A stretch of 61,721 bases of DNA, the filler included, from Stramenopiles sp. TOSAG23-3 (Eukaryota), in assembly GCA_900128585.1 (NCBI GenBank). It is 23 parts of 23 records of this genome, joined end to end, with 100 filler letters (N's around TTAATTAATTAA, not from the genome) between each part and the next. Parts side by side here need not be neighbours in the genome. Positions count along the whole stretch, not along the records: positions 32,370 to 34,952 come from LT644710.1; 22 more parts are not named here. One strand, written 5' to 3'. The notes under the pieces were generated by a model that was given only the letters and a program-made list of their open reading frames with translations, had not been told where the DNA came from and did not search any database. Below are positions 32,190 through 40,314 of this stretch, piece after piece. Every line of letters begins with the position of its first letter. Position 1 is the first letter of the stretch. The position numbers and the translations under genes were made by a program.

Positions 32190-32369
32190 ATAAGTAATTA
32201 AATTTAGCTTCTTCGTACCCTAAACCTAACTTGGTTCTGTAATTTTGTTTCATTGTTGGTTGTCAATCANNNNNNNNNNNNNNNNNNNNNNNNNNNNNNN
32301 NNNNNNNNNNNNNTTAATTAATTAANNNNNNNNNNNNNNNNNNNNNNNNNNNNNNNNNNNNNNNNNNNN

Positions 32370-33011
32370 ATAGTCAAGTTCCACGCCCGTGTCCATGTCG
32401 TAAAGGTCCTCGTCCATTTCGTCGTAGAGAAGTCCTTTTCCTGGGCAGGTCGCTCCAACTACCGCGGCGTAATCGCAAATCCTCCCAAATTTATCACGGA
32501 ACTTTTTGATTTTTCGTGCAAGTTTTTTGGCTTTTTTACCCCACTTTTTCAGTTTCTTTTTAAAGCCCAACCGCCTTTGTGCTCCCACGTACGGAAGGCG
32601 TCGTTGCATTAGCCGTCGCTCACTGTCCATGTCCCCGCGAGGAGAAAACAACCTCCTCTGGACCCCACGCTCACGTCTAAACAGGGCACACTTTGGATGT
32701 GAATACGCAAAGTCTGAAAATGCTTTCAAATCCTCCTGTGATCGTATCGGGCAAGCAGTTGACTCTGCTCCTGCAAATTGAAAGCAAGTTCTTGCAGCTT
32801 GTGTACAGTATCCTTCAAAAAACTTCTCCGGGGGGCATGTATGCAATTTACATATGGCATGATTTAAAATCGCATTTTGTTTTCGTTCTCGTTCACGGTC
32901 CAATTCAGGTTTTGGACGATGGTTATGGTTGGAAGCCCTCTGGGCGACGGCGCCTTGTTGCGAAAGTAAAACTATCGCAACGAGTGATAACAAAAGTAAA
33001 GTTGGTTTCAT
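32370..33011 (-). CDS. Secreted prepro-peptide precursor with RRL sites, a cationic amphipathic peptide and an acidic C-terminal piece (candidate antimicrobial peptide precursor); 3' partial
   Basis: Signal MKPTLLLLSLVAIVLLSQQGAVA, a 6-Cys domain, QRRL/ERRL/QRRL/QRRL, GFKKKLKKWGKKAKKLARKIKKFRDKFGRIC..C, then LLYDEMDEDLYDMDTGVELDY. Confidence 0.65.
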
Positions 33012-33994
33012 TTTTCGTTTACGGCTTGGGGGGTGAGGGTTTGTTTGTTTTTGTTGTGGCGTGTTTTGATACTTGTTTAGCATATATTTTGTTTTCAGCG
33101 TGTAGCGCGTGTAGCGCGCACGCAAAAGGAAGCTGTCCCTGTGGGACCGAACACGCAATAGAAGAATAAAGAAATAAAAAGACACTTATATATAATACAA
33201 TAGGATTGTTTTGGATCTTTATATTTGGGCACACCTTGCCTTAACTTTAAAAATGTGCTGAAACTAAAGAAACTTCTCCTTCGATCTGTAGAAAATCAGT
33301 GTTAGCTATAAAGTATAAGCTAAAAAGACGTACTTCGTCGACACAACTCTTTTCAGAAACTCTCTGAAGATTTGCCACAGCAGTCAGACACCTGTTCCAC
33401 ACTCTAGGTTCTGATTGTCAGAAACACCTTGCACCGTAAACAACCTTCTACGACCGCTCCTTTTGTCATACTATACAGATCGGTATCTGGTGATAAAAAA
33501 TAACCTTAAATGGCCGTGATAAAGTTGTCGTTCGCCATGACTGACACAACTTCCATTTTTTCTTCGGCGGCGGTGTAGTGCCCCCCACCACCTGGATTAT
33601 TATTCTATCGTTTTTTTGGTTATATCATCTACCTCGGCTATTGCACCATTGCACCGCCGATCGAAAATATCACAAATGACCCTCCCCTCCCCCGACATCT
33701 CAATCTCAACCCACAGATGATAACAACCTCTTGACCGATTTACAAGACAGACAACGAGCACCTCAAAAACAATTTAAGCCGCTGCTTGGAACTTGGAAGA
33801 TCGTACAAGGATTGATTTATCTCTGAGTGAGATATTAATATCGGATGAGGGCGTTAATGGACAAATGGAATCAAATCAATTTTCTTGTTTTTTAATATCT
33901 ACCTTATATCCTCTATATAAAAAACAAAATACAAGTATAATAATAAAACATTAATAAAAATACACTTTTTTTTCGAACCAATTCCAATACTGCT

Positions 33995-34693
33995 TTAATT
34001 GCCCCAGATGGCACCATTCGATTCTAATATTTTGACGGACGTATTGACTCTCCCCCCATCCATGATTGCCCAATCGAGGGCCGAGTTGCCGTGCAAATCT
34101 TTCACATTGACCCCCGCGCCGTGGTCCAATAGACTGCGAAGCACGCCAACGTCGTTGTTCTGCGCCGCAATCATGAGTGGAGTCTTTCCGTCTCGGAGCA
34201 GGTCTGGGTCCAACGCGGGGACTGCGCAGAGCAAGAAATTCACCATGGCGGCGTCACCAGTGTCTATGGCAACGTGGAGCAGGGGGGTCACGCCACTCCC
34301 CTCCCCCGGATCACCGGCCCATGCGGCCAAGAGAACGTTCAGTTTCGTGTAATCCTTCGACGCCACGGCGCGTGTCATCTCCTCCATGGCCTGGTGCTGC
34401 TGGTTCCGTCGCAGGATGGCGTCCTGGAGGCGTTCCTGCAGCCGAAAGGCAAGGTACCCAAGGCCGCCGTTCCTTGATATGAAAAAATGTCCCCCAAACT
34501 GCACCACAGACGGGTCGGACGGCAGTACATCGTGAACGGCTTTGAAAAACGATGTATCGTTGCAGTGGTGTTCTAGGACGCGAAGAAGCGCGGCGACGCC
34601 TGTCCCAGTAAGGTAAGCGTTTAGTTTTTTCAAAAACCACCAACCCAAGCAAAGAAAGTGCTCTTCGTTAAGAAGTCGCTGGCCTTCTTCCAT
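33995..34693 (-). CDS. Ankyrin repeat protein
   Basis: LLHVAIDTGDAAMVNFLL, GKTPLMIAAQNNDVGVLRSLLDHGAGVN, GNSALDWA. Confidence 0.85.
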   Translation of the reverse strand: MEEGQRLLNEEHFLCLGWWFLKKLNAYLTGTGVAALLRVLEHHCNDTSFFKAVHDVLPSDPSVVQFGGHFFISRNGGLGYLAFRLQERLQDAILRRNQQHQAMEEMTRAVASKDYTKLNVLLAAWAGDPGEGSGVTPLLHVAIDTGDAAMVNFLLCAVPALDPDLLRDGKTPLMIAAQNNDVGVLRSLLDHGAGVNVKDLHGNSALDWAIMDGGRVNTSVKILESNGAIWGN

Positions 34694-37809: not shown

Positions 37810-40314
37810 TTAGGACTCTTGGTACAGGTTTTCATCGCTCCGGCACTGCTTAATAACAGCTTGAAACTGTCGGGTCTTCACAGTAAATGGTCGATCATAT
37901 TTCTTGATTTGAGGATCAATAGGATACAGTGGTACTTTGTCTATTTGCAGCATTGTTCCTGGTCTGAGGGAATGCGTTCGGAACATTATCTCCCAAAGCA
38001 ATGTGTCGTAGTATTTTGTTTTGTTTTCATCTACATAAAATGGCTGATACGTCATAAGATTTCGTTCTTCATTGTATATCGATTTGAACCAACGGCATGG
38101 AACCGCCCACTTTCTATTATCTAAAACGTTTGTTTTCCCCTTAATTCTCACCTGTTCATCATACCATTTTTGAGTGCTGTACCCAACGACTCTGTCACCA
38201 ACCCACTTTCCTTCCTTTGACCCCTTTTTCTTAGCTTGCCAGCGTTTATTCACCAAAGATTCTTCAGTCCTTGAAGTTGAAACAACTTGTGGAGGTCCCA
38301 ATACTTCCACTAAGGATATGCCAGGATTACGTGGGTCCTCTCCTGGAGCAATTGCTCTGTCTTCCCTCTCGGTTGATCTCACAAAGAGCAGCATACCTTT
38401 CTTAATTTTATTCCGTACTTTTTGTGCGCGCATCTGCAAAGATTTGTCGGCCGACATCGTATTGGACGTCGTTGTCTGTAGTGCATGTTCTTCGAAGCTT
38501 CCAACAGTTTCAATATTCTCACATACACCAACAGCGGGTTCCCCCTTTGGAAGATGCCAGTTCCTGCAACAAACACTGCAAGAACAACAAGCCCACCGGA
38601 TTTTAAGTTGTCCAGTCATGATGGTATTTTCAAAGTCGTGATTACTTCGAACTCTGCCTTGTAACCCTGTTACATCTCCCTGATTTTCAGCAGGAATTTT
38701 ACAATGATCTATGAAAAAGAATCTACGGCGATTTATAAAATTTGCCTTTCTCCGATCTTTCTCCGAGTTGTGTTTTCCTTTCTTCTCTGTAAAATTCTTT
38801 TTTGCGTATTCGTATGCCTCCTTTGATGTAGTGAGGAAAGCATCTTTCATAGTGAGGGCAGCGCTCCACCCACATTTAACCACAGCACCCTCGGCGTCGC
38901 TTGGNNNNNNNNNNNNNNNNNNNNNNNNNNNNNNNNNNNNNNNNNNNNNNNNNNNNTCGGTCCAAATGGTCAAGTGATGCAGCGTCGTAAACTGTTCAAT
39001 ATATTTCAAGACTTTGTTCGTTGCATGGGTAACAAATGCATTACTGTGTAATTGGTCATTTGAAACTATGTTAATGGCCCACCTTTCAATCTGTTCGTTA
39101 ATGTTCAGATAAACTATACATGGGAAAAGAGTAGTCTGCGTGCAGGCCCAATGTTCCAGCTGAATGGTTCCCTTGTATTTGTGTGAGAAGTTCATTTGAA
39201 AGTCCATTAAAAGCACTGCCTCTCCTGGCTGGACATCTCTTATGTCCAAGTCCCACGCTGCCGAGTTACATTTTACCACAGCACTGTGTTTCAAGTACTT
39301 CGCTATGTATTGCTGGAATTCGAGAAAAAAATTATCGAATTGTTTCCGGGCAACCATCCGGACTTTCATCGTGTTTCCCAAGCTGTTTTCTACATTTGAG
39401 AAAACTCTCATTGTAATTTCACGTTTTGATTTACATCCTCGTAAAATTTTGATGATGTTACTGTTTCCATATCCACATTGTGAGCATAGACTGTGTGAGC
39501 AGATCTTCTTTGGTATGGATCCTGCTCCGCATTCCAAGTCATCCCGAATAAGCTCCCGTAGCTTCTGCTCAGACCATGTTTTTTTTTTGGTTTTAGCCAA
39601 GATGCAAGATGCGCACAAGCAGTGGTTTATGTGGCCATAAAGAGCTTTTATAAAGTCATTGAACTTCATATGGTCGCCACACATGCATGTCTGGGCTGTC
39701 GCTTTGCGCAACTGAAACGGCGAAAACTTTCTCAACATTTGCGGTGTGACCTGTTTGCAACTGGTCTTTATGTTTGGCAAAATTTTTTTTTGGAAAATTT
39801 CTGCCCCATTCTCCCATGTCTCTTTTCTGTCGTATCTTGCTAGTATTTTGCAGTGAGATGTGCACCCCTTTCTGCAAAATTTTTTCTCATTACCATATTC
39901 ATCAAAATGTTGCGTCACTGTTTTGTCCGGAGCGGCCTGTGAAAAGTCATGCGACAGGCAAAATTTGGTTATTGCCTGTACGACTTCAGGGTATTTGTTT
40001 GGGAAACTGTCCTTCCGAGGCTTCCGTACTGAGGAGGGAGCGGGAAGTTTCTTACTCGAGCTACCGCTACTTCGAGGCTTCCGTACTGAGGAGGGAGCAG
40101 GAAGTTTCTTACTCGAGCTACCGCAGCGATTTGCTCCAATAGAAAGATGTTTTCGTTTCTTCCCGCTTATTTTCCCTGCCTTCTGTTTCTGACATGTTTT
40201 CTTTATGTTTTTTAAGTCCTGTTCCATTTTTAGATTGTAAGCAAGCAGTTCATTAATTAAACCCTCACTACCGTTCTCTAGCACGTTTTCAGTGCATGCA
40301 GGAATCGAACCTAC
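37810..40314 (-). mobile_element. DDE/DDD DNA transposase, Sola2-like; 5' partial with an internal N gap at 38905-38956
   Basis: Cys-rich region (TCMCGDH, C..C..CG), then VLLMDFQMNFSH..IQLEHW..QTTL, SNDQLHSNAFV, LTIWT[gap]PSDAEGAVVK, and later CCSCSVC. This matches the DF.EN..Q..HW..Q.T / W.DG / K..D..G...K pattern I associate with Sola2. Confidence 0.65.
40016..40123 (-). repeat. 57-bp in-frame tandem duplication in the transposase N-terminus
   Basis: GSSSKKLPAPSSVRKPR is encoded twice with near-identical DNA. Confidence 0.9.

Follow-up and report, generated by a model that had tools for sequence, protein, structure and literature searches.

The locus and its probable secretory precursor

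The window, which denotes here the whole analysed stretch of 61,721 nucleotides from Stramenopiles sp. TOSAG23-3, is composed of short contigs of about 2.6 kb, joined approximately every 2.7 kb by artificial N44-12 nt-N44 linkers. The gene of interest was detected on the minus strand as an ORF of 214 amino acids, extending from the ATG at 33011 to 32370 with no stop codon and no visible intron. Position 32370 corresponds to base 1 of contig C5660, which belongs to a 28.4-Mb assembly of 7,088 contigs; the ORF runs off the contig end, and the stop codon is missing for this reason. According to the ORF reading and the contig mapping, the gene is real but truncated, and 32370..33011 (-) holds the 5' part of a precursor ORF. 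The adjacent stretch at 32270..32369 is an artificial linker with unrelated contigs on either side, so the genes to the left are not true neighbours. The only real neighbour on C5660 is a short ankyrin-repeat gene located upstream on the same strand (33998-34693 (-)), with no visible link to the precursor gene. Further along the window, at 37813-40227, two Cys- and basic-rich ORFs split by an internal N gap (38905-38956) looked transposon-like by eye.

The stretch was present in 20 of the 24 runs listed, originating from 14 studies, and all the runs with a recorded habitat were marine. Six of the runs holding it were RNA runs, from 5 studies. In two oligo-dT runs from two studies the RNA contigs stopped at about 33017-33041, and both DNA runs continued past this region. 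The position of the RNA contig ends favours the ATG at 33011 over the in-frame ATG at 33083; being the ends of contigs, they give a weak hint of transcription starting just upstream of the ATG. No light-harvesting protein was matched in the source assembly, which fits a heterotroph, although the assembly is incomplete and the absence proves nothing. Likewise, this incomplete assembly gave no 18S match, and it contained one stand-alone TPI with no TPI-GAPDH fusion found. The genes, together with the source of P0002, mark the organism as a eukaryote. A silicon-transporter-like gene was detected on C3152 (5037-5594, -; L073), with a Silic_transp match of E 4e-23 which covers profile positions 253-436 of 513.

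The N-terminus of the precursor is hydrophobic, with a best 11-residue Kyte-Doolittle mean of 3.34, and a signal peptide with a presumed cleavage site was predicted from hydropathy for aa 1 to ~23 (32943..33011 (-)). The DNA of the upstream and signal-peptide region (32961..33100 (-)) matched at least five other contigs (C6409, C1324, C3610, C1722 and C3708), which carry different cargo downstream. The signal peptide assigned in the preliminary description is thus borne out as a prediction by hydropathy and by conservation among the paralogues, and the hydrophobic N-terminus together with the common signal-peptide DNA supports a precursor of the secreted type.

After the signal peptide comes a six-Cys helical module, hereafter Cys6 (aa 37-121; 32649..32903 (-)), in which the six cysteines described previously were located at positions 54, 59, 69, 76, 87 and 108. 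The module ends at the first RRL, which serves as its end mark and is missing in the L029 allele. A copy with 90.5% DNA identity on contig C5597 ends at the same RRL and continues into unrelated cargo; the join between Cys6 and this cargo was present in one DNA run and one RNA run (loose end at 32652, matching L002). C5597, P0006 and P0009 contain Cys6 but no helix; conversely, P0007, P0008 and the P0016 cluster contain the helix but no Cys6. The C5597 copy with its other cargo, and the absence of the helix from P0006 and P0009, indicate that Cys6 is a movable module, which is probably not a cathelin-like pro-domain. It is perhaps a cargo in its own right.

The model of Cys6 was all-helical with a pLDDT of 85.8. 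Fold searches with it gave no significant match (best E 1.7 with Foldseek against the PDB, best Z 3.2 with VIA-align, best E 3.3 among viral folds), and a profile search of candidates of 44-536 residues returned solely the three proteins already known. Pfam at E<=10 resulted in Conotoxin alone for the window protein P0001, with E 0.16 and on the signal region, and the ESM Atlas gave no usable match for P0001 or P0016. Overall, the Pfam, PDB sequence, fold and ESM Atlas searches yielded no homologue of known function, family or fold. Another six-Cys module, different from Cys6 and with the approximate spacing C-x20-C-x8-C-x2-C-x5-C-x14-C was recognised by eye at L015:147-1325 (-), L010:1589-2116 (+) and L014:364-942 (+) and in P0018. 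On C369 it occurs in two tandem copies, each closed by RRL or RQL, and no Pfam match was obtained for it.

The repeated unit and its cationic helix

The four RRL motifs reported in the preliminary description were confirmed at aa 119, 132, 137 and 146, within a 30-residue span. The last three of them (32618-32610, 32603-32595 and 32576-32568) lie in a pro-segment at 32568..32621 (-) which opens a tandem repeat unit, and the last RRL is invariant in all units aligned. The order within the unit is RRL sites, helix, Cys loop and acidic spacer. The 252 nt at 32370..32621 (-) are completed by 3 nt past the contig end to a unit of 255 nt, or 85 amino acids. The repetition was detected as a back-joint from 32621 to 32370 (252 back, with 3 letters between) in three of the four runs, namely X1, X17 and X18, which comprise one DNA and two RNA runs. 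The unit closes with an acidic spacer of 18 residues and net charge -9 (32370..32423 (-)), a variant of the DEMDDE spacer found throughout the family. This segment had been taken for a D/E-rich tail, which turned out to be wrong: the repeats in relatives and reads identify it as an internal spacer, with a second unit behind it, and in relatives either a second unit or other cassettes come next.

A word-indexed search gave three proteins and an exhaustive search of 1.84 billion representatives gave six. P0002 matches the window exactly and extends into a second unit; two units were determined also for P0003, P0011, P0012 and P0015. P0012 and P0015 are full-length alleles, in which the signal peptide and Cys6 precede two units of 85 residues and a C-terminal acidic region, and P0012 comprises 354 amino acids from the MKPT start that it has in common with the window ORF. 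The L029 allele carries a single unit and a frameshift within an A-run. A second lineage is formed by P0008 and by P0016 with its cluster, and a third one by P0007; in these the unit directly follows a different signal peptide and a short pro-region, without Cys6. Within the P0016 cluster, two units were counted in three of 10 members and a single unit in the other seven, so the number of units varies in two lineages. Different assemblies of the window-gene lineage show four different sequences behind the unit. In the source assembly only the last 27 residues of a second unit were found, on C5737, which is either the 3' end of the same gene or that of a paralogue. The gene product is very probably a multi-unit secretory precursor.

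The cationic amphipathic helix occupies aa 149-178 (32478..32567 (-)). The residue counts given beforehand for 32567-32478, 16 K/R and 1 D in 30 residues, were exact, and the net charge is +15. The hydrophobic moment, the calculation of which had been suggested as a check, was 0.65 (0.648 compared with 0.197 in 5,000 shuffles of these residues, p=0.0004), with the best angle at 102 degrees. By sequence reading, the non-polar residues follow a strict 4-3 heptad (F2, L6, W9, A13, L16, I20, F23, F27 and I30). The mean hydrophobicity of -0.05 makes the helix far more charged than hydrophobic, and Ser is absent. As a background, 11,351 30-mers from the 24 long ORFs of the window were evaluated; five, overlapping in one stretch, had a net charge of at least +10 and a moment of at least 0.5, and none of the five exceeded +11.

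Similar values were determined for all 11 distinct helices examined. Their net charge was +12 to +17 and the moment 0.54-0.66, each with p<=0.0008, and the best angle fell between 100 and 104 degrees. Charge and moment were kept although the helices agreed in only 18-21 of the 30 residues. The 11 helices were chosen by a pattern requiring G after RRL; unfiltered alignments display the same RRL-G start. One helix carries a 7-residue insert with the register kept, in a single sequence which may be an assembly slip. The pattern RRL-G-aromatic-x-KK resulted in 6 matches compared with 3 in the control, and only the window gene and C3465 were precursor-like.

The helix is followed by a C-x9-C pair and PGKGLLY (aa 179-196; 32424..32477 (-)), the Cys pair noted earlier being Cys 179 and Cys 189, with a putative disulfide between them. 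The window unit was compared segment by segment with P0008 and P0007. P0008 shared 12 of 18 pro-segment residues, 21 of 30 helix residues, 8 of 11 residues of the Cys loop, 5 of 7 of PGKGLLY and 8 of 18 of the spacer; for P0007 the corresponding numbers were 11, 19, 8, 6 and 8. The five aligned units agreed without exception in RRL-G, both Cys and CPG-x-G. Over three lineages the Cys pair and PGKG(I/L)LY are conserved at least as well as the helix, which suggests that the mature peptide probably comprises about 48 residues with a net charge of +15, starting with the G behind RRL, including the Cys pair and ending at approximately Y196. AlphaFold gave a single helix at unit residues 21-56 with low confidence, and the model, with a pLDDT of about 50 at the loop, does not support the putative disulfide. 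A cationic helix with a C-terminal disulfide loop, as predicted here, is reminiscent of esculentins and brevinins.

The offset of the cationic peptide by an anionic propiece, as it had been proposed, did not hold: the spacer of -9 leaves the unit at +11 and the full precursor at +15. The homologues do not present the helix as a linker in a known protein, and none of the observations named beforehand as refuting was made in the analyses run. A PDB sequence search with the 46-residue peptide resulted in chance matches alone (E>=3.3), and the Pfam matches DUF4304 and TRCF on the helix were set aside as composition effects. C-terminal amidation at PG-K/R was considered as well. Three copper monooxygenases were found in the genome, and amidation is not claimed since the best candidate matched dopamine beta-hydroxylase (E 2e-14) better than PHM (E 2e-7).

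A paralogue family built from spacers, RRL sites and varied cargo

The family includes at least 19 related ORFs or fragments with common signal peptides and DEMDDE spacers and with very different cargo, in line with the paralogues predicted in the preliminary description. Cys-rich, Pro-rich, poly-basic or cationic, and larger folded cargoes were distinguished, separated by acidic spacers and RRL-like sites; the cargo in the 19 ORFs and fragments was split by a rough pattern, and the pieces were left uncounted. C3610 encodes a second cationic helix with a Cys pair. Many of the family cargoes are not cationic helices, and several are short and of low charge. An additional member was found by chance beside the TPI gene.

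The DEMDDE pattern was detected at 17 places on 13 contigs, compared with 0 for the reversed control. Of the 13 contigs, a whole signal peptide was recognised in four and a shortened version in another; seven break off at the 5' contig end, and the remaining contig is ambiguous. The same 18-mer DNA was present in 11 of the 17 spacer matches (9 of the 13 contigs), whereas codon use predicts 5.4%. A looser spacer pattern gave 19 matches compared with 4, and 2 of the 10 new loci read resembled acidic-spacer proteins; the counts given here leave out these 2 loci and the short C1722 fragment. RRL occurred 21 times in 3,160 amino acids of the family and 7 times in 12,047 amino acids of the long ORFs of the window, which is approximately eleven times denser, 7 of the 21 coming from two ORFs that were found through RRL.

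Contigs C941 and C2742 agree at 97.6% for 208 nt as far as a spacer, behind which they diverge, and C5449 and C6120 behave in the same way. A nine-residue cargo together with its spacers is common to four contigs. Of 27 internal ends of shared blocks, 20 fall in both genes on an acidic run or an RRL-like site, compared with 28% of positions near such a site. This count is partly circular, as the loci were chosen by the spacer, it includes pairs that depend on one another, and short reads may have been misjoined at repeats. The ending of most shared DNA blocks at spacers suggests cassette shuffling, and owing to the above limits real shuffling is regarded as likely rather than proven. The family would diversify by recombination at the near-identical spacer DNA.

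Several further features were observed among the members. A cassette of about 90 nt at L023:441-532, consisting of a spacer and a 21-residue peptide, is repeated in tandem and adjoins many different flanks in contigs from both DNA and RNA. Its summed contig depth in DNA and RNA runs was far above that of the flanks; the depth was not used as evidence since summed contig depth represents neither copy number nor expression level. Runs X1 and X3 did not cover the C3610 cargo at L023:137-408, and such a contig hole proves nothing. At the C-terminus of the C3610 product, a poly-Arg peptide with net charge +12 in 17 residues follows RRL (L023:723-782 (+)), which resembles cell-penetrating peptides, and the P0016 lineage has a poly-Lys peptide at its C-terminal end. 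A visible stop is present in 15 family ORFs, and five of these terminate in -RL (L015:147-149, L019:1627-1629, L021:346-348, L022:327-329 and L023:780-782), as does P0007. Cleavage after RRL would give internal peptides the same terminal -RL, which may act as a sorting or recognition signal.

The gene at L071:1988-2806 (+) on C1457 carries, as its first cargo after RRRL, a domain of about 216 residues which opens with a long Gly/Ala/Val-rich and possibly amphipathic part. Pfam and PDB searches with this domain gave no match, and it is a candidate membrane-active protein. On C1324 (L010:1589-1620 (+)) the signal peptide stops after nine residues and passes directly into a spacer, which is either a recombination product with lost secretion or a misassembly. 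The neighbours at 12 family loci, where 11 ORFs were scanned, were unrelated (ankyrin, 2OG-Fe oxygenase, GH16, CLC channel, DnaJ-TPR, DEP and VWA-like), and many of the family contigs are too short to reveal a neighbour. LRR-like neighbours were restricted to a short LRR frame on C5597, with no membrane segment seen, and a single LRR-like motif on C6120, with no Pfam match.

The use of RRL as a processing signal, put forward in the preliminary description, is supported as likely by the start of the helix exactly after the conserved RRL in three lineages. Cleavage at this motif is considered quite probable by analogy with described systems. In Toxoplasma, the Golgi aspartic protease ASP5 cuts RRL after Leu at N-terminal or internal sites, as described in PMC4764566; its TEXEL substrates (RRLxx) are thus cut at the same motif (PMC4764566), but they are large effectors and not peptide arrays. 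Diatom Sil1p and the RXL proteins (cingulins, silacidins, frustulins and Sin1) have in common with the window gene a signal peptide, an acidic region and Lys-rich repeats bounded by RXL/RRL which are removed (PMC4557024, PMC5525289). The mature silaffins are reported to lack the RRIL/RRNL ends of their repeats (PMC4557024), and the protease removing the RXL ends is given as unknown in these sources (PMC4557024, PMC5525289). The silaffin units contain modified Lys and Ser and precipitate silica, whereas in the window gene the unit consists of an amphipathic helix free of Ser, together with a Cys pair.

By the same analogy with Toxoplasma ASP5 and the diatom RXL sites, a membrane-anchored aspartic protease would cut after the Leu of RRL, and a cut behind the last RRL would leave the helix with its invariant G at the free end. 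A second cut at the acidic spacer would free the peptide; it is assumed because spacers bound the cargo throughout the family. Ten pepsin-family matches were found in the genome, two with a C-terminal hydrophobic stretch. The products of L059:925-2658 (-) and L060:1030-2871 (-) are putative membrane-anchored aspartic proteases, each with RRL just before the catalytic domain, and they are candidates for the RRL protease. In the PDB search with L060, plasmepsin V ranked 8th and 9th of 57 matches, and the four matches of L059 at E<=1e-15 were all chymosins; this ranking does not single out plasmepsin V/ASP5 orthology for either.

Comparison with known systems and the probable role

The net positive charge and the amphipathic helix which define the functional class of cationic amphipathic helical antimicrobial peptides were both found in the window gene. 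Tandem units with spacers in variable copy number, as in peptide polyproteins of the magainin, apidaecin and MF-alpha type, were determined in two lineages, and RXL-bounded repeat units in a predicted secreted precursor, which characterise the silaffins and RXL proteins, were detected as well. Magainins, apidaecin, naegleriapore and alpha-factor are all listed as products of polyproteins in PMC5850478. The frog skin precursors described in PMC13128954 (ranid brevinin, esculentin and temporin) are similar in having a conserved signal peptide, an acidic spacer and varied mature peptides, with antimicrobial and other cargo on one export cassette (PMC13128954). They differ in KR cuts and in a signal peptide on its own exon, whereas the window gene has RRL and several unlike cargoes per chain and belongs to a single cell. 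No sequence homology between the window gene and the frog precursors was found.

The cathelicidin layout suggested in the preliminary description was not supported, given the optional Cys6, predicted to be all-helical, and the lack of a cathelin Pfam match for P0001 and P0012. The cathelin fold is cystatin-like, unlike the all-helical model of Cys6. Cathelicidins also have a cationic amphipathic peptide downstream of a disulfide-bearing domain from which it is freed by proteolysis, but they are defined by the cathelin domain (PMC3978493), and Cys6, which has no Pfam match, is not always linked to the helix. The piscidin/pleurocidin layout was not supported either, with ~125 residues between the signal and the helix (~45 in P0008) and with repeated units. 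In piscidins and pleurocidins, according to PMC3978493, the amphipathic helix is likewise followed by a C-terminal pro-region, but the mature peptide stands right after the signal peptide and the gene contains introns. The window gene differs from them also in the upstream pro-segments, the tandem units, the Cys pair and the much higher charge, and no homology is indicated (no Pfam match). Amoebapores and naegleriapores are antimicrobial peptides of phagotrophic protists, the latter derived from polyproteins (PMC5850478); they are saposin-like, whereas the proposed active part here is a linear helix with one loop, and no saposin Pfam match was obtained for P0001 or P0012.

A description of such an RRL peptide-precursor family was not found by searches of the open literature on stramenopiles, MAST-4, phagotrophic protists and protist polyproteins, subscription papers and supplements being outside the scope, and a word search of a 2026 preprint on uncultured protist genomes gave no mention of it. 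Nor did these searches reveal a frog-skin-like peptide arsenal described for such cells. Bacterial killing by small marine grazers has been largely inferred from lysozymes, proteases and saposin-like proteins.

The best explanation, which we hold with somewhat better than even confidence, is a secreted polyprotein cut after RRL and at the spacer to free a membrane-permeabilising peptide of about 48 residues. The gene would encode the polyprotein with its repeated 85-residue unit, and the acidic spacer would partly mask the peptide before release. The freed peptide would be a +15 amphipathic helix with a predicted disulfide loop, and it would bind and permeabilise negatively charged bacterial membranes in the food vacuole or just outside the cell. 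Cationic helical peptides act on anionic membranes. With half of the residues basic and a conserved non-polar stripe, action on anionic membranes appears the most plausible, and antibacterial membrane activity is slightly favoured as the main role. The low hydrophobicity and the two non-polar positions per heptad also fit a coiled coil or a polyanion binder, and considering the varied cargo, the family members may not share one role.

Alternatively, the precursors could yield signalling peptides of pheromone or neuropeptide type, excised at RRL and acidic sites and recognised by receptors, with the repeated units raising the dose as in the case of yeast alpha-factor. Variable-repeat polyproteins are described as typical of pheromones and neuropeptides in PMC5850478, and the short cargoes of low charge in the family would suit such a function. 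However, the +15 helix keeps its amphipathicity while a third of its residues change, which would fit a physical target better than a receptor pocket, and the unrelated neighbours at the family loci read weaken this reading further; it is considered unlikely. We give a similarly low probability to structural polycations, that is, silaffin-like silica precipitants or matrix and condensing peptides of granules or extrusomes which pair with spacers or other polyanions as coiled coils. The grammar of Sil1p is the same, comprising a signal peptide, an acidic region and repeats rich in Lys that end in RXL (PMC4557024), the genome has a single Silic_transp match (L073), and the strict heptad with the best angle of 102 degrees agrees with a coiled coil. 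Yet silaffin activity is attributed in PMC4557024 to modified Lys and phosphorylated Ser, whereas the helix is Ser-free with an aromatic/aliphatic face, and SIT-like genes are recorded in some non-silicified organisms (PMC5100055). The diverse cargo and the low repeat number would also suit bioactive peptides over a bulk matrix.

The very high charge with low hydrophobicity, and the short poly-basic peptides after RRL at the ends of other members (C3610 and the P0016 lineage), raise the question of a released but non-lytic peptide, which would cross membranes or bind nucleic acid, lipopolysaccharide or virus particles and disable prey, rivals or viruses from within or by aggregation. This is rated as improbable, since the non-polar face kept in 11 of 11 helices goes beyond what nucleic-acid binding would seem to need. 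Finally, RRL may stay uncut in a whole surface or secreted repeat protein, the cassette swapping being an artefact of short-read assembly. Most family members do lie at contig ends, the spacer cassette is collapsed in assemblies, and four different sequences come after the unit in different assemblies. However, the joins recur in independent sources, that of the unit to the acidic C-terminal cassette in JGI and ENA proteins and in L029, and that between Cys6 and its cargo on C5597 in one run each of DNA and RNA, and RRL-G is invariant at the helix start across the lineages, which leaves this explanation very improbable.

Returning to the membrane-permeabilising peptide, a wider reading can be proposed tentatively, at a confidence clearly below even: the family may form a venom-gland-like arsenal of a single-celled marine predator, with dozens of cassette polyproteins cut at RRL and DEMDDE and recombined at the spacer DNA. 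The cassettes would be lytic helices, disulfide-rich, Pro-rich and poly-basic peptides and small folded domains, and the window gene would supply the bacteria-killing helix. If this is true, the processing signal doubles as a shuffling site.

The membrane-attack reading is cheaply testable with synthetic peptides. As a source of peptide scaffolds the family is so far untapped, and the six-Cys helical domain without a fold match is one of them; the family would also extend RRL processing, as in Toxoplasma effectors and diatom wall proteins, to peptide arrays. Cassette shuffling has been proposed, though not demonstrated, for frog skin peptides in the account of PMC13128954, and the apparent spacer-bounded swapping in this family, if real, would be a direct case of it. 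If the linear cationic helix is indeed produced from a multi-copy precursor, it would represent, in a unicellular eukaryote, an antimicrobial peptide of the animal type.
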